From NCBI GenBank assembly GCA_902576815.1, contig CACGWQ010000005.1:887-64886 (forward strand): a stretch of 64,000 nt of DNA, read 5' to 3'. How positions within the stretch are numbered: position 1 is the first letter of the stretch; each line of letters opens with the position of its first letter. The stretch comes from an uncultured Pelagibacteraceae bacterium (GTDB lineage Bacteria; Pseudomonadota; Alphaproteobacteria; Pelagibacterales; Pelagibacteraceae). The translations under genes were made by a program, and so were the position numbers. Positions 46,373 to 64,000 of this stretch are shown here, piece after piece. Below the pieces are notes generated by a model. That model was not told the origin of the DNA and searched no databases. It saw only the letters and a list, made by a program, of their open reading frames with translations.

Positions 46373-46627
46373 ATGAAAATAATTACTGTATACTCTGGAC
46401 CGATGTGTAATTTTTGTGATGCCGCAAAAAGATTACTATCGAGAAATAAATTGGAATATCAAGAGATAGATATATCTAAAGGACCAAACATTAGAGAGGA
46501 AATGATTGAAAAATCGAACGGTCGAAGAACAATTCCTCAAATATTTTTTAATGAAGAGCACATCGGTGGATATCAAGAACTTCGTGAATTAGAAAAATCT
46601 GGAAATCTTTTTTCTTCTTTAGAATAA
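46373..46627 (+). CDS. grxC: Glutaredoxin 3
   Basis: CNFC, RRTIPQIF, HIGG. Confidence 0.92.
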   Translation: MKIITVYSGPMCNFCDAAKRLLSRNKLEYQEIDISKGPNIREEMIEKSNGRRTIPQIFFNEEHIGGYQELRELEKSGNLFSSLE

Positions 46628-46633
46628 TTTTTT

Positions 46634-47410
46634 TTATTCGATTGTTGCAGTAAAGACCGGCTCCTCAGCCCAAATATTACAAACTGTTCCGACAACATCA
46701 TTTGCTGATAAGGCTTCAGCAGTACCAAACTTCATGGTAACTTTTGGTGGTTTTGTCGTAACTGTATATGGTTTAGTTAGTGCATATATTAAAACTGTTG
46801 AGTCATCATCAGAATCTAAATCAGATTTTTGTGCAGCACAATATGTACAATCACTTCCAGCTGTAGCGGTTCCAACTAAGCCTCCACAAGTAGAATTTAC
46901 ACACGTAATAACTTGATTATCACCATGATTCATTAAGTATACTCTTGTTTCAGCTGAAGCTGATCCGGTTCCTTCATCAAAAGCTCTCTTGTGAGTATAT
47001 TTTCTTGCAGACTCTGATGTTCCATATTGACTATCAGCATTTGCAACTGTTCTACAAACATCTCCATTATTAGTCTTTAACATTTCACCAGCTTCATCAG
47101 AAGTTTTTACTGTAAATTTTCTATCTATTGTAACTTGCATGTGCGTGTAGGTAGCTCCTAATGGTAATAAGGCAGGATCTCCATATGCACCAGCAACTGC
47201 ACCAGCTCCTACAGATGCAACATCTACTTCTTTATCGCCAGTACCAATAACAACTTTACCGTTACACGTAGTGCCCGAACCTTTTCCTGTACATAATGCA
47301 ACCTGTTTCATTGTAACTTTATATACTGCAGCTTTTCCTACTGCTGCATAAACATTCGATGAGATTGATAAAAGTAAAATAAAGAAGGATATAAATTTAA
47401 TATATTTCAT
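46634..47410 (-). CDS. Secreted Cys-rich beta-type protein, tandem copy A (258 aa)
   Basis: Start MKYIKF at 47410 gives a clean signal peptide (...SNVYA); 8 Cys; paralog of 47464-48240. Confidence 0.82.
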   Translation of the reverse strand: MKYIKFISFFILLLSISSNVYAAVGKAAVYKVTMKQVALCTGKGSGTTCNGKVVIGTGDKEVDVASVGAGAVAGAYGDPALLPLGATYTHMQVTIDRKFTVKTSDEAGEMLKTNNGDVCRTVANADSQYGTSESARKYTHKRAFDEGTGSASAETRVYLMNHGDNQVITCVNSTCGGLVGTATAGSDCTYCAAQKSDLDSDDDSTVLIYALTKPYTVTTKPPKVTMKFGTAEALSANDVVGTVCNIWAEEPVFTATIE

Positions 47411-47463
47411 ATTAATCAACTCTAACAATATTTGCAGAACCGCTAAATTCAACAAAGACTTTA

Positions 47464-48240
47464 TTATTCAATAGTCGCTGTAAAAACTGGCTCTTCAGCC
47501 CATATATTGCAGACGGTTCCTCCTACATCAAAAGCAGACAGTGCTTCGGCAGTTCCAAATTTCATAGTTACTTTTGGTGGTTTTATAGTTACTGTGTATG
47601 GATTAGTAAGTGCATATATTAAAATGGTTGAGTCGTCATCAGAATCTAAATCTGATTTCATTGCAGCACAATAAGTGCAATCACTTCCAGATGTATCAGT
47701 TCCACCAGTTGATCCACAATCAGTAGCAGCACAGAGTGTAACATTATTTGCGCCTTGGTTCATTAAATAAACCCTCATTTCAGCTGAAGCTGATCCGGTT
47801 CCTTCATCAAAAGCTCTCTTGTGAGTATATTTTCTTGCAGACTCTGATGTTCCATATTGCGCATCTGCACTTGCAACTGTTCTACAAACATCTCCATTAT
47901 TAGTCTTTAACATTTCACCAGCTTCATCAGAAGTTTTTACTGTAAATTTTCTATCTATTGTAACTTGCATATGAGTGTATGTTGTACCTAATGGAAGCAA
48001 AGCAGCATTTCCATATGCACCAGCAACTGCACCAGCTCCTACAGATGCAACATCTACTTCTTTATCGCCAGTACCAATAACAACTTTACCGTTACACGTA
48101 GTGCCCGAACCTTTTCCTGTACATAATGCAACCTGTTTCATTGTAACTTTATATACTGCAGCTTTTCCTACTGCTGCATAAACATTCGATGAGATTGATA
48201 AAAGTAAAATAAAGAAGGATATAAATTTAATATATTTCAT
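47464..48240 (-). CDS. Secreted Cys-rich beta-type protein, tandem copy B (258 aa)
   Basis: ATG 48240 is separated by one base from the barrel gene's stop codon; signal peptide; same 8 Cys as copy A. Confidence 0.82.
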   Translation of the reverse strand: MKYIKFISFFILLLSISSNVYAAVGKAAVYKVTMKQVALCTGKGSGTTCNGKVVIGTGDKEVDVASVGAGAVAGAYGNAALLPLGTTYTHMQVTIDRKFTVKTSDEAGEMLKTNNGDVCRTVASADAQYGTSESARKYTHKRAFDEGTGSASAEMRVYLMNQGANNVTLCAATDCGSTGGTDTSGSDCTYCAAMKSDLDSDDDSTILIYALTNPYTVTIKPPKVTMKFGTAEALSAFDVGGTVCNIWAEEPVFTATIE

Positions 48241-48241
48241 A

Positions 48242-49090
48242 TTAATCAGCTCTAACAATATTTGCAGAACCGCTAAATTCAACAAAGACTTTATTATTTC
48301 TTTTTACTTTTGTAAGTAATTCATTTGACATATCTTTTTCACTAAACCAAGGTGTGTTCGCTATTCCATCTTGTGCTGTTGGTCCTTCTTTTGGAGGATG
48401 GAAGAACATTAATTTTGCATACCACTCATCATCTAATCCAGCTCTGTCCTTATCATCGTAAGCTACCTCAAAATTAACATTTGGAGATAGTAATAACTCA
48501 GACCCTATAACAGTTCCCTCAACGTCACTTCGATCTCTGCCATCCCATGAATATGTATCTATAAATCCTTTTGCCCAATGTAAGTATGGAATTTGAGAAG
48601 CTAATCTTAGGTCATATCCATCTAGGACTTTTTCATCGGTTCCATCATCTAAACCTATGTAGTAATTTGTTGTAAATTCGAGCATCGCATTTTTTGCTTC
48701 TCCTCCAATACTAGCTCTTTTGTTTCCATTATCATCAGCATCTAAAAACAAATTTACACCTGTGAATGAAAGTTTATCATCACTTAAATATCGTTTACCA
48801 AAACCAACATTTCCTACTAATCTTTCATCATTATTTTTTTCGGTATTAAACAAAGAGAATTGTGTAAAATAATTTCCATCTTCGCTTCTTTCTAATTCTC
48901 TAACTCCTAAAATGCTGAAGTCCGGTTTATAATTTTCTCTTACATCTATGCTAACCTCGGTTGTGCCTTCACCTGGAACTAAGTTAGAAATATAACTACT
49001 AGCGGTTTCTGCAATTTTTTTTGTAAGATCTTCAGCTTGGCTACTAGAGCAAAGAATGAGAATGGATAAGAATAAAATTATTTTTTTCAT
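48242..49090 (-). CDS. Inverse-autotransporter (intimin/invasin-type) beta-barrel protein without passenger
   Basis: Signal peptide; GNVGFGKRY, GVNLFLD, RASIGGE, NYY, DGYDLRL..QIPYL and linker VKRNNKVFVEF (compare intimin VQRNNNIILEY); ends about 10 aa later. Confidence 0.8.
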   Translation of the reverse strand: MKKIILFLSILILCSSSQAEDLTKKIAETASSYISNLVPGEGTTEVSIDVRENYKPDFSILGVRELERSEDGNYFTQFSLFNTEKNNDERLVGNVGFGKRYLSDDKLSFTGVNLFLDADDNGNKRASIGGEAKNAMLEFTTNYYIGLDDGTDEKVLDGYDLRLASQIPYLHWAKGFIDTYSWDGRDRSDVEGTVIGSELLLSPNVNFEVAYDDKDRAGLDDEWYAKLMFFHPPKEGPTAQDGIANTPWFSEKDMSNELLTKVKRNNKVFVEFSGSANIVRAD

Positions 49091-56433: not shown

Positions 56434-58584
56434 TTATTTACCTATAGATATCAATGTTAAGTCATCACTTAAATTTTTATTACCAGCTTTGTTAATAACT
56501 GCATTGGAAATATCTGATAATTGTTTGGTAGAATCTTTGTTATAATACTCTTCAATAATTGCTAATGAACCATCTATTCCAATTTCCTCGCCTGAACTGT
56601 TAAGACTTTCAGACAAACCATCGGTAAATGCGAAAAATCTATTGTTTTCTAATTTAATTTTGTGAGTTTTAAATACAGATTTATCTTTCTGCAATATTAC
56701 TCCCATTGGAGGAGAATTGCTTTCGAATTGTTCATACTCACCAGATTTCCTACGAATAATTGCAGGTTGGTGACCGCCATTTACCCATCTTATTTCATCT
56801 GACCTAATATTATACTCTCCCAATATACTTGTGACAAACATTCCACTAGTTTTTGTTAAAAACAAATCGTTGTTCATATGAAACATCATTTCGTCTGGGT
56901 CTACTTTGTCTCTAGACATTATTTCAAATAATGTGGATGCTTTTGCCATAACCATTCCAGCGTGTATACCTTTGCCAGCTACATCAGCAATTATAAAGTA
57001 AACACTATCATTATGGGGGTAAAAACTAAAAAAATCTCCTGATACTTCTCTTGCAGCAATATTTATTCCATGAACTGGATAATTTTCTAAATTTCTCTTT
57101 GGTAAAAAATTTTCTTGAACTTTTACAGCAAGTTTTACCTCATTTGAGATTCTATCTCTCCATTTTTGTTTTTCACTTTCACTTATCTCAAGCTTGCTCA
57201 TCAATTTGTTATAATAAAGACCAATAACTCCACCAGCTGTAAAAGGGTCTTGTGGTCCTCTTATAGTTAAATCACCTGACTCTGATTGTTTATCTAAAAT
57301 TGATATCAAATCGTGTTCTACAGAAGTTGCATTATGTTCAGCAATATTAAGTCCTAGCTCTTCATGAAGTGGGGTTACTCTTAAAGGATAAAAATAATTT
57401 AAAAATTTTAATAAAATGTAAGAACCAAAAAATGAGAATGCTCCAATTGAAACTACTCCAATGAATTGGGCTTTTATCTGCTCCAATCTTGTTAATCCTG
57501 TTCCAAGTATTTCAAGATCACTGAAAAGACCAACGGCTAAAGTACCCCATATTCCAGCAGCTAAATGAACAGGAACAGCACCAACAACATCATCAATTTC
57601 TAATTTATTTAATAATTCATTTACAAAAATTGCTATTATAGATCCAATTACTCCAACAAAGATAGATGTAATAGATGTCATTGAATTACATCCTGCTGTG
57701 ATTGCTACTAATCCTGCTAGTGGACCGAGTATAACATAATATGGATCTGGTTTTTTAAATAATGCAAATGATATTCCAAGGCCAGTTAACAATCCAAATG
57801 CAGCTGCAAGAAAAGTGTTAATTAATATTAATGGAACAGCTTCATTCATTGCACCATTACTTCCTCCATTAAAACCAAACCATCCAAACCATAAAATCAA
57901 AGTTCCAAGAACTGCTAGAGGAAAACTGGATCCAGTAAATTTTCCTTTGTTCGCATCAGAGTATTTTCCTATTCTAGATCCAAGTATTAATACTGCTGAC
58001 AAGGCTATCCAACCACCAACTGAGTGAACAATCGTGCTACCTGCAAAATCTACAAAACCAATATCAGTTAACCAACCATTTGTTTTCACTTGGCCTGTTA
58101 CGGCCAATAATTGTCTTGTTGCATCAATATTATTTAAGTAACTTGAAGACCATGCCCAATGTCCAACAATCGGATAAATAATGCCTGTTGCTATAATAGT
58201 TATTATTAAATAACCATTAAACTTCATTCTTTCAGCTACTGCACCTGAAACTATTGTTGCAGCTGTCGCAACAAACATCGCTTGAAAAACAAAATACGTC
58301 ATATACTCAGCTCTTTCAGTTTTAAAAAGAAATAAATCTGTTCCAAATAAACCATTAAAGCTTTTTCCAAACATAAGACCAAAACCAAACATCCAAAAAA
58401 CTACGACTGCAACACCAAAATCAGCTGCATTTTTTAAAGCAACATTTATGCTATTTTTGTGCCTAGACAAACCAGTTTCCATACACATAAACCCTGCCTG
58501 CATTATAAAAACTAGTATTGCACAATTTATAACCCAAAGTGTATCAACAAACGATATTATAGAATCCAAATTAATACTCTCCAT
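56434..58584 (-). CDS. Ammonium transporter (Amt) fused to a HAMP-like linker and PP2C/SpoIIE (RsbU-type) phosphatase
   Basis: Amt: MQAGF, FQAMF, SGAVAER, DFAGSTIVH, WFGWFGFNGGS, DDVVGAVPVH. Phosphatase: VQENFLP, SGDFF, ADVAGKG, FVT, NGGH, FTDGL, DDLTL. Confidence 0.93.
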   Translation of the reverse strand: MESINLDSIISFVDTLWVINCAILVFIMQAGFMCMETGLSRHKNSINVALKNAADFGVAVVVFWMFGFGLMFGKSFNGLFGTDLFLFKTERAEYMTYFVFQAMFVATAATIVSGAVAERMKFNGYLIITIIATGIIYPIVGHWAWSSSYLNNIDATRQLLAVTGQVKTNGWLTDIGFVDFAGSTIVHSVGGWIALSAVLILGSRIGKYSDANKGKFTGSSFPLAVLGTLILWFGWFGFNGGSNGAMNEAVPLILINTFLAAAFGLLTGLGISFALFKKPDPYYVILGPLAGLVAITAGCNSMTSITSIFVGVIGSIIAIFVNELLNKLEIDDVVGAVPVHLAAGIWGTLAVGLFSDLEILGTGLTRLEQIKAQFIGVVSIGAFSFFGSYILLKFLNYFYPLRVTPLHEELGLNIAEHNATSVEHDLISILDKQSESGDLTIRGPQDPFTAGGVIGLYYNKLMSKLEISESEKQKWRDRISNEVKLAVKVQENFLPKRNLENYPVHGINIAAREVSGDFFSFYPHNDSVYFIIADVAGKGIHAGMVMAKASTLFEIMSRDKVDPDEMMFHMNNDLFLTKTSGMFVTSILGEYNIRSDEIRWVNGGHQPAIIRRKSGEYEQFESNSPPMGVILQKDKSVFKTHKIKLENNRFFAFTDGLSESLNSSGEEIGIDGSLAIIEEYYNKDSTKQLSDISNAVINKAGNKNLSDDLTLISIGK

Positions 58585-58612
58585 TATTGTACTCTTAAGT
58601 TATTATTAATTT

Positions 58613-58641
58613 ATTATACATCAAAGAAGTTTGATGTTCAA
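58613..58641 (-). promoter_or_regulatory. Sigma70-type promoter for amt-PP2C with palindromic spacer
   Basis: Minus strand TTGAAC(58641-58636)-N17-TATAAT(58618-58613); inverted repeat catcaaa-N4-tttgatg at 58619-58636. Confidence 0.6.
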
Positions 58642-58647
58642 AATAGG

Positions 58648-58890
58648 TTAGTTGTTCTTTTTTCTCCAAATGAAGTAAAAAATATAAGGAATTGTAGCTG
58701 GAATAATTCCAAACCAAAACCATTCATCCCATCTAAAAGATTTATCTATCATTGGACTTCTTAATCCATTCCACCATGTTAAATATCCAATAAACAGAAT
58801 CCATGCTAAACTTGCAGTAATAAATATTTTAGTTTTTTTTGAACTATTATCAATTTTTAAAATAATTTCTTTTAGTTTTTCGAAGAACAT
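58648..58890 (-). CDS. Small Trp-rich two-TM membrane protein
   Basis: Two hydrophobic segments flanking TWWNG...FRWDEWFWFG; 5 bp downstream of the pilin gene. Confidence 0.72.
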   Translation of the reverse strand: MFFEKLKEIILKIDNSSKKTKIFITASLAWILFIGYLTWWNGLRSPMIDKSFRWDEWFWFGIIPATIPYIFYFIWRKKNN

Positions 58891-58895
58891 TAGAC

Positions 58896-59357
58896 TTAAC
58901 TTTCGCAGTCTTCAGCAGATGTTTTTTTTGGTTTGTTAGAAATATTATCAAACTTTATTTCGCATTTTTCTTTAGTATCGCTATTAAAGACTACAGTTGA
59001 TTCTGCAATGATTTCATAATTAATTGTATTTTTTTTTTGAACACAAAAAACAAAATCTATATTATCTGGAACTGGTACATTTAGAGCATCTGAACCAGAT
59101 ATTTTAGTGGTATTAGATGAATTTGGAGTACAACCGTCATCTTGAGTATAGTAATTTCCTTTATCTGAGTAATATTCTGTTTGAGCTAAAGCCATCTGCT
59201 GAATAATATTTTCAGCAGATTTAACTTTTGAACTAGTTACATAACCTGAATAAGCAACTACCCCAACAGCTGCCAATATTCCTATTATTCCGACAACAAC
59301 TAGTAACTCAATTAATGTAAAACCAGCATTTAGTTTTTTCAAACTGTATGAACTCAC
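58896..59357 (-). CDS. Type IV pilin-like protein (second/minor pilin)
   Basis: Prepilin cleavage G|FTLIELLVVV, hydrophobic helix, C-terminal Cys. Confidence 0.9.
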   Translation of the reverse strand: MSSYSLKKLNAGFTLIELLVVVGIIGILAAVGVVAYSGYVTSSKVKSAENIIQQMALAQTEYYSDKGNYYTQDDGCTPNSSNTTKISGSDALNVPVPDNIDFVFCVQKKNTINYEIIAESTVVFNSDTKEKCEIKFDNISNKPKKTSAEDCES

Positions 59358-59374
59358 TAAGTAAGATTACAATC

Positions 59375-59851
59375 TTAAGAAGTTGGAACAGTAACTGTTA
59401 GCATATTGGAATCGTCGCCATCCTTTTGATATGTGCAAGATGTAATTTTAATTCCACTAGACGCTTCAATCCAATTCTTTCCTCTATTAGTTGAACTACA
59501 CTCAGTTGGTGCTGCAGAATTAGTGATTGCTTGAGTTGTGGTATCCCATGGATTTTTAAAGTCGTCCGATTTTCCAAGAGACTCAGCAATAGCAGTTACG
59601 ATTTTCGCATCTGTTCTTCCAGAGCAAGTAAGCTTATCATCCATTGCTTTTGACTCACCTATGTTACATTTTTGAAGTTCGTTCTGTACCCATTTTTTTA
59701 CTGAGTTATGATTTGATTTTACTGCACCTTTTTTTGCAGACTCTGTGTAACCACTGTAGGCAACTACACCTACTGAAGCTAAAATTCCGATAATTGCTAC
59801 AACAACAAGTAGCTCAATAAGAGTAAATCCTTTGTTTTTTTTCTTATTCAT
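59375..59851 (-). CDS. pilA: Type IV pilin (probable major pilin)
   Basis: KKNKG|FTLIELLVVVAIIGILA, KNPW, Cys pairs; AAGGA RBS. Confidence 0.88.
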   Translation of the reverse strand: MNKKKNKGFTLIELLVVVAIIGILASVGVVAYSGYTESAKKGAVKSNHNSVKKWVQNELQKCNIGESKAMDDKLTCSGRTDAKIVTAIAESLGKSDDFKNPWDTTTQAITNSAAPTECSSTNRGKNWIEASSGIKITSCTYQKDGDDSNMLTVTVPTS

Positions 59852-59985
59852 TGAATATCCTTTATTGTTAATGCGGATAATATATATATATTAAATTTGA
59901 ATTCAATAGAGATATATTGCATTAAGTTAATTTAAAATAGTACAAAATATCTTGATTTTATCATAATTTTAATAAATATAATTGT

Positions 59986-60285
59986 ATGTCCTACAAGGTT
60001 ACAGAAGAAAATAACATATCTACAGTATATTTGGATGGTGAAATAGATATGGACAAAACTGAAGCTGCTAAAGAAGTCATAATGCCTTTAATTGAAGCAA
60101 AAAAGGAAGTGCATTTAAACTTAAAAGATGTGCAATACATGGATTCGTCAGGCATTTCCGTTTTAATTGAAAGCCATCAAAAAGCAGAGGAGTTAGGAAC
60201 TAAAGTAACCTTAAAAGAAGTAAGTAAATCGGTTCTAAAGGTTATTATGATGGCTAAACTTGAAATGGTTTTAAATCTTGATTGA
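59986..60285 (+). CDS. STAS-domain anti-sigma-factor antagonist (RsbV/SpoIIAA-like)
   Basis: LDGEIDM, LNLKDVQYMDSSG (phosphorylatable Ser). Confidence 0.9.
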   Translation: MSYKVTEENNISTVYLDGEIDMDKTEAAKEVIMPLIEAKKEVHLNLKDVQYMDSSGISVLIESHQKAEELGTKVTLKEVSKSVLKVIMMAKLEMVLNLD

Positions 60286-60697
60286 AATGAATATAAAAGA
60301 AGAGCAAGATTTCTTAGTAAATAGCAAAAGTTTGAAAGATGTAAGAGACTTTGCAAGAAACATAATTGACAAATCTCCAATTTTACAAAATCAAAAAGAT
60401 GAGCTTGTGCTTGCTATTGCGGAAGCTGCTCAAAATATTGTCAAACATGCTTATAAAGATATGGCAACTACAAACGATAGAATGCAAATTAAAATATCTT
60501 TTGAGGATAACGAATTAGAGATTGGGTTTTTTGATAAAGGAAAACCTGTAAACCCTGAGAATATAAAACATAGAAAGCTTGATGACGTTAAACCTGGAGG
60601 TTTAGGAACTTTTTTTATAAAACAAATAATGGATGAAGTTGTATTTAAAGAGTCTCCTGGTTGGAACAATCATTTAGTGTTAACTAAAAAATATTAA
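60278..60697 (+). CDS. RsbW/SpoIIAB-like Ser kinase / anti-sigma factor (GHKL fold)
   Basis: LAIAEAAQNIVKHAY (N box), FDKGKP (G1), GGLGTFFIKQIMDEV (G2); start may be ATG 60287. Confidence 0.9.
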   Translation: MIEMNIKEEQDFLVNSKSLKDVRDFARNIIDKSPILQNQKDELVLAIAEAAQNIVKHAYKDMATTNDRMQIKISFEDNELEIGFFDKGKPVNPENIKHRKLDDVKPGGLGTFFIKQIMDEVVFKESPGWNNHLVLTKKY

Positions 60698-61942
60698 TTA
60701 TTGACCCATTATAGATCCAACATTAAATATTGGAGAGTACATTGCAATCATCAATCCACCTATCATTGTTCCCATGAAGACGATCATAATAGGCTCAATT
60801 AGACTGGACATATTTTCAACAGATTGATCAAATTCTTCCTCATAATAAGATGAAACAGAAGTAAACATCTCATCTAGATTACCTGTTTGCTCGCCCACAG
60901 AAATTAATTGACTGAAAGTTGGAGGAAAAACAGGTTCTTTCAGAAATAATTTTGTTAAAGTATCTCCGGAAAAAACACCTTTTTTTACATTTTCTAAAGC
61001 TTGAGTAACAACATCATTATTGCTTACAGATTTCGCAATCTCTATACTTTCAAGCAAGTTGACTCCTGCTGCACTTAGATTACCCATTATGAGAGATATT
61101 CTTGCAATTAAAGATTTTAATATCATTTCTCCAAAAACCGGCATTTTTAGAACTCTTGCATGCCATTTGTATCTGATAGCAGGAATTTTTGTTGTTGTAT
61201 ATTTAAAGATAACAAAAACAATTATTGCTAATACTAATAATGTCATACCACCAGGGCCTCTTAAAAAATCACTTGCAGTCATTATTACTGCTGTTGGTTT
61301 TGGTAAGGCAACCCCCATACCATCGTACATCTTTGCAAATACTGGAACTACTTTAACTAGCATGAATATACTCACAACCATGGCTACCGAAAACATAACA
61401 CCTGGATACATGAGTGCACTTTTGATTTTTTTCTTAACCTTTTCCCTTTTCTCTAATGAATCTACCAGTTTTAATAAAAAATCATCTAATTTACCGCTAG
61501 CTTCTCCAGCTTTTATTAAGTTAATATAGACATTGTCAAATATTTTTGGATATTTTTCAAAACATTTTGACAAAGTGACACCACCTTCTAAGTTTTTTCT
61601 CACATCTTCAATTATTTCTTTCATGGTTGGATGCTCAATTTGATCTCTAAGCATTGTTAATACATTTAATATTGGTAATCCTGCTTTTACCATTGTTGCA
61701 AATTGTTTGGAAAATAAAACAACATCTTGTGGGGTTACTTTCTTTTTTCCAAAAGAAAAACCACCACCTTTCTTTTTTTCTTTAGCTACCTTTTTCTTTT
61801 TTGTTCTTACTAAATTGGTAATGATGATCTTTTGCTCTTTTAGTTTGAAAGAGGCCTCTTCTTGATTAAGAGCCTCTATGTCGCCTTCTACATATTTTCC
61901 TGCTGAAATACCTTTATAAGTAAATGTTTCTGAAGACATCAA
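60698..61942 (-). CDS. pilC: Type IV pilus platform protein PilC (GspF family)
   Basis: FSKQFATMVKAGLP, AGEASGKLD, KSALMYP, VGEQTGNLD, IEP. Confidence 0.92.
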   Translation of the reverse strand: MMSSETFTYKGISAGKYVEGDIEALNQEEASFKLKEQKIIITNLVRTKKKKVAKEKKKGGGFSFGKKKVTPQDVVLFSKQFATMVKAGLPILNVLTMLRDQIEHPTMKEIIEDVRKNLEGGVTLSKCFEKYPKIFDNVYINLIKAGEASGKLDDFLLKLVDSLEKREKVKKKIKSALMYPGVMFSVAMVVSIFMLVKVVPVFAKMYDGMGVALPKPTAVIMTASDFLRGPGGMTLLVLAIIVFVIFKYTTTKIPAIRYKWHARVLKMPVFGEMILKSLIARISLIMGNLSAAGVNLLESIEIAKSVSNNDVVTQALENVKKGVFSGDTLTKLFLKEPVFPPTFSQLISVGEQTGNLDEMFTSVSSYYEEEFDQSVENMSSLIEPIMIVFMGTMIGGLMIAMYSPIFNVGSIMGQ

Positions 61943-63697
61943 TTATTCCATCGTCAGAACTCTATCGAATTCTCTAAAATTTAAATCACCTGATAAAATT
62001 AATTCTCTACCCATGTCATGCATAGTTCTAAAACCTTCTTTAACAGCTATTGCTTTTAGTTCTGGTGTAGTTGCTTTAGCTAAGATTGCTTCTTTTATGG
62101 CTTTTGTCACATTTAAAACTTCATAAATACCCATACGTCCTTTATATCCACTACCTTTACATTTTGGACATCCTTTTCCTTTAACTGCATTTGCTCTTGA
62201 CGCTTGCTCAGGTGTAAATCCAAAATCCGCTAAAACTTTTGGTGTTACATCTGGATCGGGCTCTCGACATTCTGTGCAATTTTTTCTTGCTAATCGTTGT
62301 GCTAAGACTAAAGAACATGCAGCTGAAATAAGATAATCAGGAGTTCCCATATTTTGTAGTCTGGTAATTGAACTTGGCGCGTCGTTAGTGTGCAGTGTAC
62401 TAAAAACTAAGTGTCCTGTAAGAGCGGCTTTTAAACCAATATCAACAGTTTCTTTATCTCTCATTTCTCCAACCAAAATAATTTCTGGGTCTTGTCTTAA
62501 AAAAGATCTCAATGCTGCAGAGAAATTTAACCCAATATCATCTTTTATTTGAACTTGTCCTACACCATCTAATTCATATTCGACAGGGTCTTCAGCTGTT
62601 AAAATATTTAAATGGGGTTGTGAAACTTCTTTTAAAATACTATATAAAGTAGTTGTCTTTCCAGATCCAGTTGGTCCTGTTACTAAAACTAATCCTTGTG
62701 TAGAGTGTATTGCTTTTCTTAAAATTTTTAAATCAGTATCTTCAAAATTAAGCTGTTCTAAACTTATATCTCCAGCGTCTTTATTAAGAACCCTCATCAC
62801 AATTCTTTCATTTGTTGCTGTTGGTAATATTGATAATCTCAAATCAACTACTTTTCCGTCAATTTTAAAAGGAATTGCACCATCTTGTGGCAATCTTCTT
62901 TCCGCAATATCTAATTTTCCCATTATTTTAAATCTAGTAACAACAGCACCATAGTTGGAATGCAAAAATTTTTTAAAATGTTCTTGCTCTTGAAGCATTC
63001 CATCTAGACGGTATCTAACTCTAGAGGTGAATCTGTATGGCTCAATATGAATATCTGAAACTCCTGATTTAATAGCTTCCGCAACAACTGCAGTACTAAA
63101 TTTTATTACTTCTGACTCGTTTTCAAGAGCTTCTATATCCTCTTCGGGTGTCTCATCCAAAACTTCTGCAGTATCCTCTACATCATAATCAAAAGTTTTT
63201 GTCCTCTCTTTTTCAGCGTTTGCTTCTTGAATTGTCTTTATTGTTGTTTCACCAGCATCAAGAATTTTATCTATAAAACTAGATATATGAGTAACTTTGG
63301 CTGCATGTAATTCAATATTTTTTTTTGTAATAGTTTTTAAATTTCTCATCAGACTTAATTTGGAACTATCTGAAATAGCAATATGTAAAATGTTACCATC
63401 TATTTTAAATGGTGCTATAAAATTCATTCTTATATAATTGGATGGAAGAACAGATTTTATATCATCTGTTAAAGGTATATTTGTTAAATCAATTGTAGCT
63501 AATGATTGTTCTGTAACCAATAAATCTAAAATTTTATCTTCGTCTGTTAATTGAAGTTCAAATACTGCATCTAATTGCGATTTGTTTCCCTCTGTAGATA
63601 TTTTTTTTATATTTGGCAAATCTTTTCCAGATATAATATCTTGATCAATAAGAATATTAATTAAGTTTATTTCAGATTCTCTACTAATGTTAATCAT
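61943..63697 (-). CDS. pilB: Type IV pilus assembly ATPase PilB (GspE family)
   Basis: SDIHIEP, DIAERRLPQDG, GPTGSGKTTTLY, LRQDPEIILVGEMRD, STLHTND, two CxxC. Confidence 0.93.
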   Translation of the reverse strand: MINISRESEINLINILIDQDIISGKDLPNIKKISTEGNKSQLDAVFELQLTDEDKILDLLVTEQSLATIDLTNIPLTDDIKSVLPSNYIRMNFIAPFKIDGNILHIAISDSSKLSLMRNLKTITKKNIELHAAKVTHISSFIDKILDAGETTIKTIQEANAEKERTKTFDYDVEDTAEVLDETPEEDIEALENESEVIKFSTAVVAEAIKSGVSDIHIEPYRFTSRVRYRLDGMLQEQEHFKKFLHSNYGAVVTRFKIMGKLDIAERRLPQDGAIPFKIDGKVVDLRLSILPTATNERIVMRVLNKDAGDISLEQLNFEDTDLKILRKAIHSTQGLVLVTGPTGSGKTTTLYSILKEVSQPHLNILTAEDPVEYELDGVGQVQIKDDIGLNFSAALRSFLRQDPEIILVGEMRDKETVDIGLKAALTGHLVFSTLHTNDAPSSITRLQNMGTPDYLISAACSLVLAQRLARKNCTECREPDPDVTPKVLADFGFTPEQASRANAVKGKGCPKCKGSGYKGRMGIYEVLNVTKAIKEAILAKATTPELKAIAVKEGFRTMHDMGRELILSGDLNFREFDRVLTME

Positions 63698-64000
63698 TAT
63701 AAAATTCTTGGTGCAATAAATACTAAAAGTTCGTCTAGGTTATCAGACTTCTTTTTACTTTTAAAGAGATTACCAATCACTGGAACATTACCTACACCAG
63801 GGACCTGTTTTTTATTTTGCGCAATTTCGTTCTTTTTTATACCCCCGATTACAACAATATCTCCATCTGCAACAAGAAGTCTTGTTACAATTTCCATTTT
63901 ATTTATTGGGGGTTCATCAGACTCACTTGATGCATCTGGTGAGTCATTATTCACCTTGATAGATAAAAGCACGTTTCCATCACCAATAATACTTGGGGTA
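63697..64000 (-). CDS. pilQ: Secretin PilQ, C-terminal end (gene starts beyond window)
   Basis: Frame is open to the window edge (TPSIIGDGNVLL...); DGDIVVIGG, VPGVGNVPVIGNLF, ELLVFIAPRIL secretin motif. Confidence 0.88.
   Translation of the reverse strand, partial: TPSIIGDGNVLLSIKVNNDSPDASSESDEPPINKMEIVTRLLVADGDIVVIGGIKKNEIAQNKKQVPGVGNVPVIGNLFKSKKKSDNLDELLVFIAPRIL

Follow-up and report, generated by a model that had tools for sequence, protein, structure and literature searches.

What does a partner switch of the RsbV-RsbW kind control when it is embedded in a type IV pilus locus beside a phosphatase with an ammonium receptor-like domain? This question is raised by a 64,000-nucleotide stretch from an uncultured Pelagibacteraceae bacterium (GCA_902576815.1, contig CACGWQ010000005.1, positions 887 to 64,886; hereafter the window), in which positions 56434–60697 hold an Amt-linker-PP2C fusion gene (amt-PP2C), two pilin genes, an RsbV-like STAS gene, and an RsbW-type serine kinase gene. 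The pilus island carries these switch components without a dedicated sigma factor. RsbW would probably phosphorylate Ser54 of the STAS protein, the fusion would probably bind ammonium as a receptor and, as a member of an exchangeable set of sensor phosphatases, dephosphorylate the same serine, and the STAS protein would probably act on pilus assembly or activity after transcription. Taken as a whole, this picture, in which a partner switch without sigmaB resides in the pilus locus, receives signals from swappable sensors with ammonium as an optional input, and uses STAS as the effector, is tentative, and we rate it at slightly under even.

Linkage of the switch to the pilus

Among 172 same-genus genomes (at least 90% complete), RsbW was detected in 86, PilC in 95, and any PP2C in 91, and 73 genomes had none of the three. 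All 86 RsbW genomes also contained PilC and a PP2C, and the distance between rsbW and pilC was below 2 kb in 62 of these genomes and did not exceed 12 kb in 85. Nine genomes had PilC and no RsbW, seven of which belong to one lineage that is also devoid of a PP2C. An Amt-type PP2C occurred in 51 genomes (the type was called from the score and the length of the frame, with full frames checked for a subset) and was accompanied by RsbW in 50, even where amt-PP2C had moved 0.4–1 Mb away; in the exception (G203), it lies beside a CHASE2-PP2C at a contig end. The orthologue of the window gene was found less than 5 kb from rsbW in 36 of 46 cases. In a first sample, consisting of 36 same-genus and 24 other-family genomes, full-length Amt-PP2C was present in 13 of the 36 and 0 of the 24, RsbW and PilC occurred in the same 14 of the 36, and nine of the 13 Amt-PP2C genomes had RsbW. 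Because the switch was never found without pili, the pilus is taken as the thing controlled, which the gene distributions make probable.

Gene maps revealed a fixed core composed of pilMN-O-P-Q-B-C, rsbW with one or two STAS genes, and a pair of pilin genes, to which Amt-PP2C is added as a movable accessory. The order amt-PP2C/pilin/rsbVW/pilC, whose conservation across relatives had been put up for checking, is kept in its rsbW/STAS/pilin/pilC part, whereas Amt-PP2C changes position and is missing in 36 of the 86 switch-bearing genomes. The RsbW and PilC trees have three deep groups in common, which extend to PilC identities as low as 39% and between which lineages without RsbW are nested, and the identities of the two proteins are correlated (rho 0.77, 19 genomes). 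A wider survey of the order detected SpoIIE in half of the 100 genomes from the family and in none of the 20 from the other family, and in two other genera, all four PP2C-bearing genomes have RsbW within 9 kb of pilC. The sole SpoIIE match of genome G235, from another genus (98% complete, 60 contigs), is a 717-aa Amt-PP2C that has the N1/N2 receptor residues and is located between RsbW-STAS-pilD and pilin-pilC, which would make G235 the best case for Amt-PP2C as the cognate phosphatase of STAS. Outside SAR11, Amt-PP2C is present in metagenome-assembled genomes (MAGs) of Leptospiraceae and SAR324. An Acidimicrobiia MAG (L165:4935-8311) encodes Amt-linker-PP2C-RsbW as one 1017-aa frame, followed by genes for STAS and a cyclic-nucleotide-type channel, and three further Amt-PP2C-RsbW fusions exist. 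The preliminary description had coupled the fusion to STAS and RsbW, and the switch to the pilus; the 50 of 51 genomes, G235, and the natural fusion followed by STAS uphold the former, and the 86 of 86 genomes with PilC uphold the latter. From these distributions, it is highly likely that Amt-PP2C acts on the window STAS.

The predicted receptor, the phosphatases, and the STAS-RsbW pair

The fusion (56434..58584, minus strand) is a genuine single frame of 716 aa, with its domains recognized by Pfam, and is not a frameshift artefact; its 120 best homologues, two of which carry a source name (Candidatus Pelagibacter), are 89–99% identical and all combine Amt with SpoIIE. The Amt domain (residues 17–420, 57325..58536, minus strand; Pfam Ammonium_transp, E 1e-109) is the complete channel recognized at the outset, with the Phe gate F104/F238, W145/S242, and the twin His H187/H340. 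Ammonium receptors are defined by an intramembrane N1/N2 site (PMC11152129). The residues Q29, E36, N52, D55, F56, T110, and S113 align one-to-one to Q22, E29, N45, D48, F49, T104, and S107 of Sd-Amt1; the N1/N2 ligands are kept in 120 of 120 close homologues and are missing in nine of nine core Amts (two from the source genome and seven from relatives), which upholds the receptor type. All 23 homologues that were aligned have the same key residues in both the Amt and the PP2C domain. The nearest PDB matches of the fusion are the receptors Sd-Amt1 (1e-115, residues 11–472, linker included) and Ks-Amt5 (5e-83), then the transporter Af-Amt1 (2e-43), and a predicted structure model ranks the three in the same order. 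On these sequence grounds, we have little doubt that the Amt domain is of the ammonium receptor type and would bind ammonium. The following segment (residues 422–492, 57109..57321, minus strand) had been called HAMP-like. No Pfam HAMP match was obtained in the fusion at E<=0.1, whereas the predicted fold does give a helix-connector-helix with a signalling helix (helix 422–436, connector, helix 450–492) that aligns to the Sd-Amt1 linker.

The SpoIIE/RsbU-type PP2C domain (residues 504–714, 56443..57075, minus strand; Pfam SpoIIE at residues 526–714, E 1e-34) retains D517, D534, H605, D655, and D707/D708, and its metal ligands do not vary among the 23 proteins aligned, in agreement with its earlier identification as an intact RsbU-type phosphatase. 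Two more SpoIIE proteins are encoded in the source genome on contig C11, among pilY1, an FecR-like gene, a TPR/outer-membrane gene, and pilD, and their orthologues scan as CHASE2-PP2C and GAF-PP2C. The locus is therefore not a one-phosphatase cascade. In C11:5694-11779, outside the window, the FecR-like, TPR/outer-membrane, and CHASE2-PP2C genes are followed by pilD and GAF-PP2C, which likely amounts to a signal relay across the envelope with a phosphatase as its last member. All three deep pilus lineages have CHASE2-PP2C, and a receiver-type PP2C was recognized by sequence inspection in another genus. In a FastTree phylogeny of 42 PP2C domains, calculated without bootstrap, the SAR11 Amt, GAF, and CHASE2 types formed one clade apart from nine non-SAR11 Amt-PP2Cs, which fits the swapping of sensors on a common catalytic domain. 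A second Amt-PP2C paralogue (~745 aa, 51–55% identical, with an N-terminal extension) was observed in 17 of the 172 genomes (L024, L028, L066, L075, L080); a small secreted CxxC protein usually precedes it and also precedes a distant 717–719-aa type.

The STAS protein (59986..60285, plus strand, 99 aa) carries the phospho-acceptor Ser54 within YMDSSG, has RsbV (6M36_B) as its best PDB match, and keeps Ser54 in 48 of 48 sequences. The kinase (60287..60697, plus strand; 136 aa from ATG, or 139 aa from TTG at 60278) has the motifs of RsbW/SpoIIAB GHKL kinases, namely E46, N50, and the G-boxes, belongs to HATPase_c_2, and is best matched in the PDB by RsbW (6M36_A). The Pfam and 6M36 matches agree with how the preliminary description had named the pair. 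Mean identity across 51 genomes is 80% for STAS versus 64% for RsbW, the higher STAS conservation being as expected of a putative hub with several partners.

It is reported that phosphoserine 54 occurs on both STAS proteins of HTCC1062, with peptides represented by 1199 and 883 spectra (PMC13198564), and residues 49–66 of one of these proteins are identical to those of the window STAS. Under carbon limitation, the pS54 of the latter STAS fell to 0.15-fold with its protein level steady at 0.94-fold and the pilin at 0.76-fold; nitrogen is absent from the conditions of that phosphoproteome (PMC13198564). RsbW is the only Ser/Thr kinase found in it, and its authors state that no protein phosphatase is known (PMC13198564). 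SAR11_0049/0050, 0058, 0064, 1218, 0047, and 1248 have no rows in the phosphoproteome supplement (PMC13198564).

Several variants of the pair were observed in relatives. A second STAS of 94 aa with a truncated C-terminus is present in 20 retrieved loci (L022, L025, L039, L050, L075, and others), the serine of DSSG being retained in either paralogue. A distant lineage of pilus loci (L123, L125, L126, L234) differs in that the STAS protein has a long acidic tail (~170 aa) and its gene adjoins pilD, 25–40 kb from rsbW. In four closed genomes (L077 (G086), G091, G092, G095), the pilC matches are split or contain stops while rsbW and STAS are intact, which could reflect phase variation, decay, or sequencing error.

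The surrounding genes are those of a type IVa pilus, with further members, including pilD and pilY1, on contig C11. The switch genes flank a pilA-type pilin (59375..59851, minus strand, 158 aa) and a second type IV pilin (58896..59357, minus strand, 153 aa). The anatomy and coordinates first given were borne out, including the 1.4 kb between amt-PP2C and STAS, the 134-bp divergent pilA/STAS promoter region (59852..59985), and the junction at which the rsbW and pilC stops abut with zero gap; the placement of both pilins between amt-PP2C and STAS was right, whereas an 80-aa Trp-rich membrane protein gene had been overlooked (58648..58890, minus strand; no Pfam family), which recurs directly behind the pilins in relatives. 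On the other side, pilC for the platform protein (60698..61942, minus strand) converges with rsbW and is followed by pilB for the extension ATPase (61943..63697, minus strand), whose conserved N-terminus lacks what we take to be the c-di-GMP motif, and by the C-terminal end of the secretin gene pilQ (63697..63999, minus strand), which runs off the window. In relatives, the pilus loci also contain pilMN, pilO, pilP, and pilT; PilT was not found in the source genome, whose assembly is 76% complete. Parts of amt-PP2C, of the two pilin genes, and of STAS, rsbW, and pilC are represented in metatranscriptome contigs, in small shares, and such contigs cannot show transcription or operons. Elsewhere in the window (46500–49090), the region upstream of msrB encodes a pair of paralogous exported proteins in tandem (~258 aa) and a barrel resembling inverse autotransporters, all labelled by inspection only.

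Output of the switch and rival explanations

Two genes of the sigma70 family, matching RpoD and RpoH in size, are present in the source genome, and no extra sigma70 gene was found in five of five RsbW-bearing or five of five RsbW-less closed genomes (two genes each; sigma54 was not searched), which extends the earlier remark that the window contains no alternative sigma factor. Searches of five genomes for GGDEF, PII, and class III cyclases were negative in all five, and an output through c-di-GMP or cAMP was rejected on the lack of cyclases in these genomes. The STAS protein is considered the likely effector, as in the precedents BtrUVW, SypA, and RbaV (PMC8256260, PMC3999984); by this analogy, it may be STAS and not RsbW that acts, through a post-transcriptional route, a possibility that we place somewhat below even. 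In Bordetella, Btr controls an envelope machine post-transcriptionally (PMC8256260).

Transcription of the island may be governed separately. The palindrome CCCA-WWW-TGGG is located ~46–52 bases before the STAS start in 42 of 51 pilA/STAS regions, versus 4.6 in shuffles, the pattern having been drawn from 15 of those 51 regions. Of 119 intergenic regions upstream of island genes, 49 contain it, compared with five of 80 other regions and none of 12 from pilus lineages that lack RsbW. Within pilus islands, single copies lie at the promoters of pilA/STAS, pilMN, and the FecR, lipoprotein, and autotransporter genes. A tandem winged-helix gene (~320 aa) is present in 159 of 172 genomes, and the palindrome is upstream of it in 20 of 20 promoters, four of which had been spotted beforehand; in 19, two copies 31–32 bases apart flank the -35 box (shuffle mean for paired copies 0.36), a layout typical of self-repression. 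The candidate operator of this regulator can be written as GTYCA-WWW-TGGG (L127–L146 and the window). Single-domain winged-helix genes are found inside several pilus islands, one of them adjoining a STAS gene (G113). These features suggest that the transcription of pilA is under a separate regulator that does not depend on the switch. The source genome has no match for the tandem regulator and only weak or decayed copies, at 59931–59941, where most relatives have a clear copy, and at 58637–58647, where the copy overlaps the -35 box of a sigma70-like promoter candidate for amt-PP2C (58613..58647, minus strand; 10/12 matches) from a scan that was overall at chance level (27 versus 23 ± 4.7). The palindrome was rejected as an RpoH -10 box, as no CTTGAA lies at the right distance and the RpoH-type promoters of groES and hslV differ, and as an SOS box, being carried by 0 of 4 recA and 0 of 4 umuD upstream regions. 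It was also rejected as specific to RsbW genomes, with 10–19 strict-pattern matches genome-wide in both groups and none found in the RsbW-bearing pilus islands of two other genera.

A more direct effect of the switch on transcription deserves consideration. RsbW could be a true anti-sigma factor that holds RpoD or RpoH, like that reported to act on sigma66 in Chlamydia (PMC4552016), so that the phosphatases tune the transcription of the pilus and of other genes. Its kinase fold and conserved L-K-x-V-R helix start are compatible with this role, and pilA mRNA is regulated in HTCC1062 (PMC3090418). However, a regulator of a core sigma factor should sometimes occur without pili, which it does in 0 of 86 genomes; RsbW is the least conserved part, especially at residues 24–35, the pilA/STAS region does not match the RpoH-type promoter of groES and hslV, and Rhodobacter RbaW bound neither RpoD nor RpoHI in a two-hybrid assay (PMC3999984), which together make the anti-sigma role unlikely. 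Alternatively, STAS or RsbW might bind a winged-helix repressor that likely recognizes the pilus-island palindrome. The enrichment of the palindrome in the islands, its absence from the RsbW-less pilus lineages, and the single-domain regulators within islands would be accounted for in this way; on the other hand, the tandem regulator is near-core and has its own-promoter site in genomes with and without RsbW alike, the RsbW-bearing islands of the two other genera and the source genome do not follow the pattern, and it would be simpler if the island as a whole, together with the switch, were under the control of the regulator. We regard the repressor route as improbable.

The role of the fusion itself can also be questioned. 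Amt-PP2C might be a passenger of a hypervariable island that transports or binds ammonium, its phosphatase being ungated or directed at other substrates, with the GAF and CHASE2 phosphatases running the switch. It changes sites, is gained and lost, and has been described as a one-gene island (PMC11796062); the wide Ser/Thr phosphorylation in HTCC1062 offers other possible substrates (PMC13198564), and trimer-to-dimer gating is not known for a PP2C output. A passenger would hardly be expected to be accompanied by RsbW in 50 of 51 genomes, to be the sole phosphatase of G235, to be fused to RsbW beside STAS in another phylum, or to keep its N1/N2 and metal ligands invariant, and the constant level of the two long Amts of HTCC1062 under nitrogen limitation fits a sensor (PMC3870248). 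The passenger explanation thus seems improbable.

The preferred reading, that of a pilus-borne switch with STAS as the effector, has to bear a number of observations that weigh against it. The sampled genomes are kin, so that counts such as 86 of 86 and 50 of 51 overstate the association and describe rather than test it, and four of the 13 Amt-PP2C genomes of the first sample, 55–87% complete, had no match for RsbW or PilC. The published receptor signature in its literal form matches 0 of 120 homologues, because the spacer is 53, one loop residue short of 54–60; with the spacer relaxed to 50–60, 120 of 120 match. The single SAR11 PP2C clade could partly reflect AT-rich composition, and the placement of the STAS phosphosite among neighbouring serines is ambiguous for most spectra (PMC13198564). 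Neither STAS nor RsbW could be assigned a partner in the pilus, and the N-terminal helix of PilB is conserved in this lineage and not in distant RsbW-bearing lineages. The published fusion, Amt-GI5, forms an island by itself as a single gene, and its authors found no further phosphatase domain of this kind in the gMED single-cell genomes (PMC11796062).

The same holds for ammonium as the input. Amt-PP2C is missing in 36 of the 86 switch-bearing genomes and all 51 same-genus Amt-PP2C genomes carry another PP2C; therefore, ammonium is not the general controller that the preliminary description had made it, and enters as an optional signal through one of the phosphatases, of which there are one to five. 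Neither did the expected dependence of pilus levels on nitrogen status emerge from the published data: PilP (1.58-fold protein) is the only pilus gene given in the main text of PMC3870248 as increased under nitrogen limitation in HTCC1062, the supplements of that paper contain no match for six locus tags, and the pili and pilA of HTCC1062 increase in dark carbon starvation (PMC3090418).

Relation to known systems and biological meaning

The Bacillus RsbU/RsbP-RsbV-RsbW-sigmaB system (6M36) resembles the present one in its PP2C, canonical-serine STAS, and GHKL kinase and in the convergence of several phosphatases on one STAS, and differs in that no sigmaB or other extra sigma70 gene exists here and that the switch is embedded in pilus genes. 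In Pseudomonas, SiaABCD and HsbR-HsbA-HsbD combine a membrane sensor-PP2C, a STAS protein, and a kinase that control surface behaviour, with a diguanylate cyclase as the output. No diguanylate cyclase was found in five of five genomes here, and SiaA was a weak match only in database comparisons. Bordetella BtrU-BtrV-BtrW, Vibrio fischeri SypE-SypA, and Rhodobacter RbaYVW share STAS as the likely output and have no cognate sigma factor (PMC8256260, PMC3999984), whereas the present system has a type IV pilus, a membrane ammonium receptor as input, and swappable sensors. The RsbU-RsbV1/V2-RsbW-sigma66 system of Chlamydia is similar in its reduced genome, two STAS paralogues (as in many relatives here), several phosphatases, and lack of sigmaB; it is reported to act on the primary sigma factor (PMC4552016), whereas the SAR11 switch is accessory and was never found without pili. 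On the receptor side, Sd-Amt1 (8QJ3/8QJ4/8QPF) and Ks-Amt5 (6EU6) share the N1/N2 ligands, Phe gate, twin His, and a C-terminal transducer (PMC11152129, PMC5764959); they signal through a diguanylate cyclase or a His kinase, in place of the Ser phosphatase predicted here, and Leu286 occupies the position of Sd-Amt1 Asn269.

The fusion had been thought to belong to no characterized module. It was in fact published in 2025 as Amt-GI5, a 716-aa SAR11 Amt with a HAMP-like linker and a PPM phosphatase, for which sensing was proposed, SAR11_0049/0050 of HTCC1062 were named, and no partner was given (PMC11796062); an Amt with Ser/Thr phosphatase output that had been characterized was not found in the literature searched, so this part of the statement stands. 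The same paper calls the fusion SAR11-exclusive in its marine set (PMC11796062), whereas it is here linked to STAS/RsbW and two more PP2Cs and is also present in Leptospiraceae and SAR324 MAGs. An anti-sigma antagonist and RsbW are marked in a SAR11 pilus locus in a 2026 preprint (bioRxiv 10.64898/2026.10.07.757358), and two amt genes beside pilins, as well as a "sigB regulator" phosphatase among pilins elsewhere, have been noted (PMC2217521). No paper tying the Amt-phosphatase to STAS/RsbW was found in the literature searched, subscription papers such as Tremblay and Hallenbeck 2009 excepted. The parts are in print separately, and the link and counts are new as far as the literature was searched. 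In four genomes (L026, L034, L043, L045), Amt-PP2C lies beside umuD/umuC-like genes, across recA-alaS from the pilus island.

The locus is a real, well-formed variant of the partner switch, with a predicted ammonium receptor as one optional input, and the control of pili by ammonium is a testable hypothesis. In its widest form, which we consider doubtful, about half of Pelagibacter species would possess a sigma-independent phospho-switch that travels with the pilus and gates pilus extension directly, with ammonium, envelope (CHASE2-FecR-TPR/outer-membrane), and cytoplasmic (GAF, receiver) signals entering through swappable PP2Cs, and strains with the Amt type would have an ammonium-gated pilus. 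Such a switch would join several loose ends, namely an Amt-phosphatase without a partner (PMC11796062), a SAR11 phosphoproteome with RsbW and no phosphatase (PMC13198564), a nitrogen response without PII (PMC3870248), and pili whose role is described as unclear and for which nitrogen scavenging, as an aid in N-poor water, has been proposed (PMC12789548). An orthologous locus is present in the cultured strain HTCC1062, and its STAS phosphopeptide is already among those detected (PMC13198564). If true, the switch would provide the Amt-bearing strains of the most common bacterium in the ocean with a PII-independent nitrogen-sensing route, by which the uptake of DNA, recombination, or exposure to phages could be coupled to nitrogen status.

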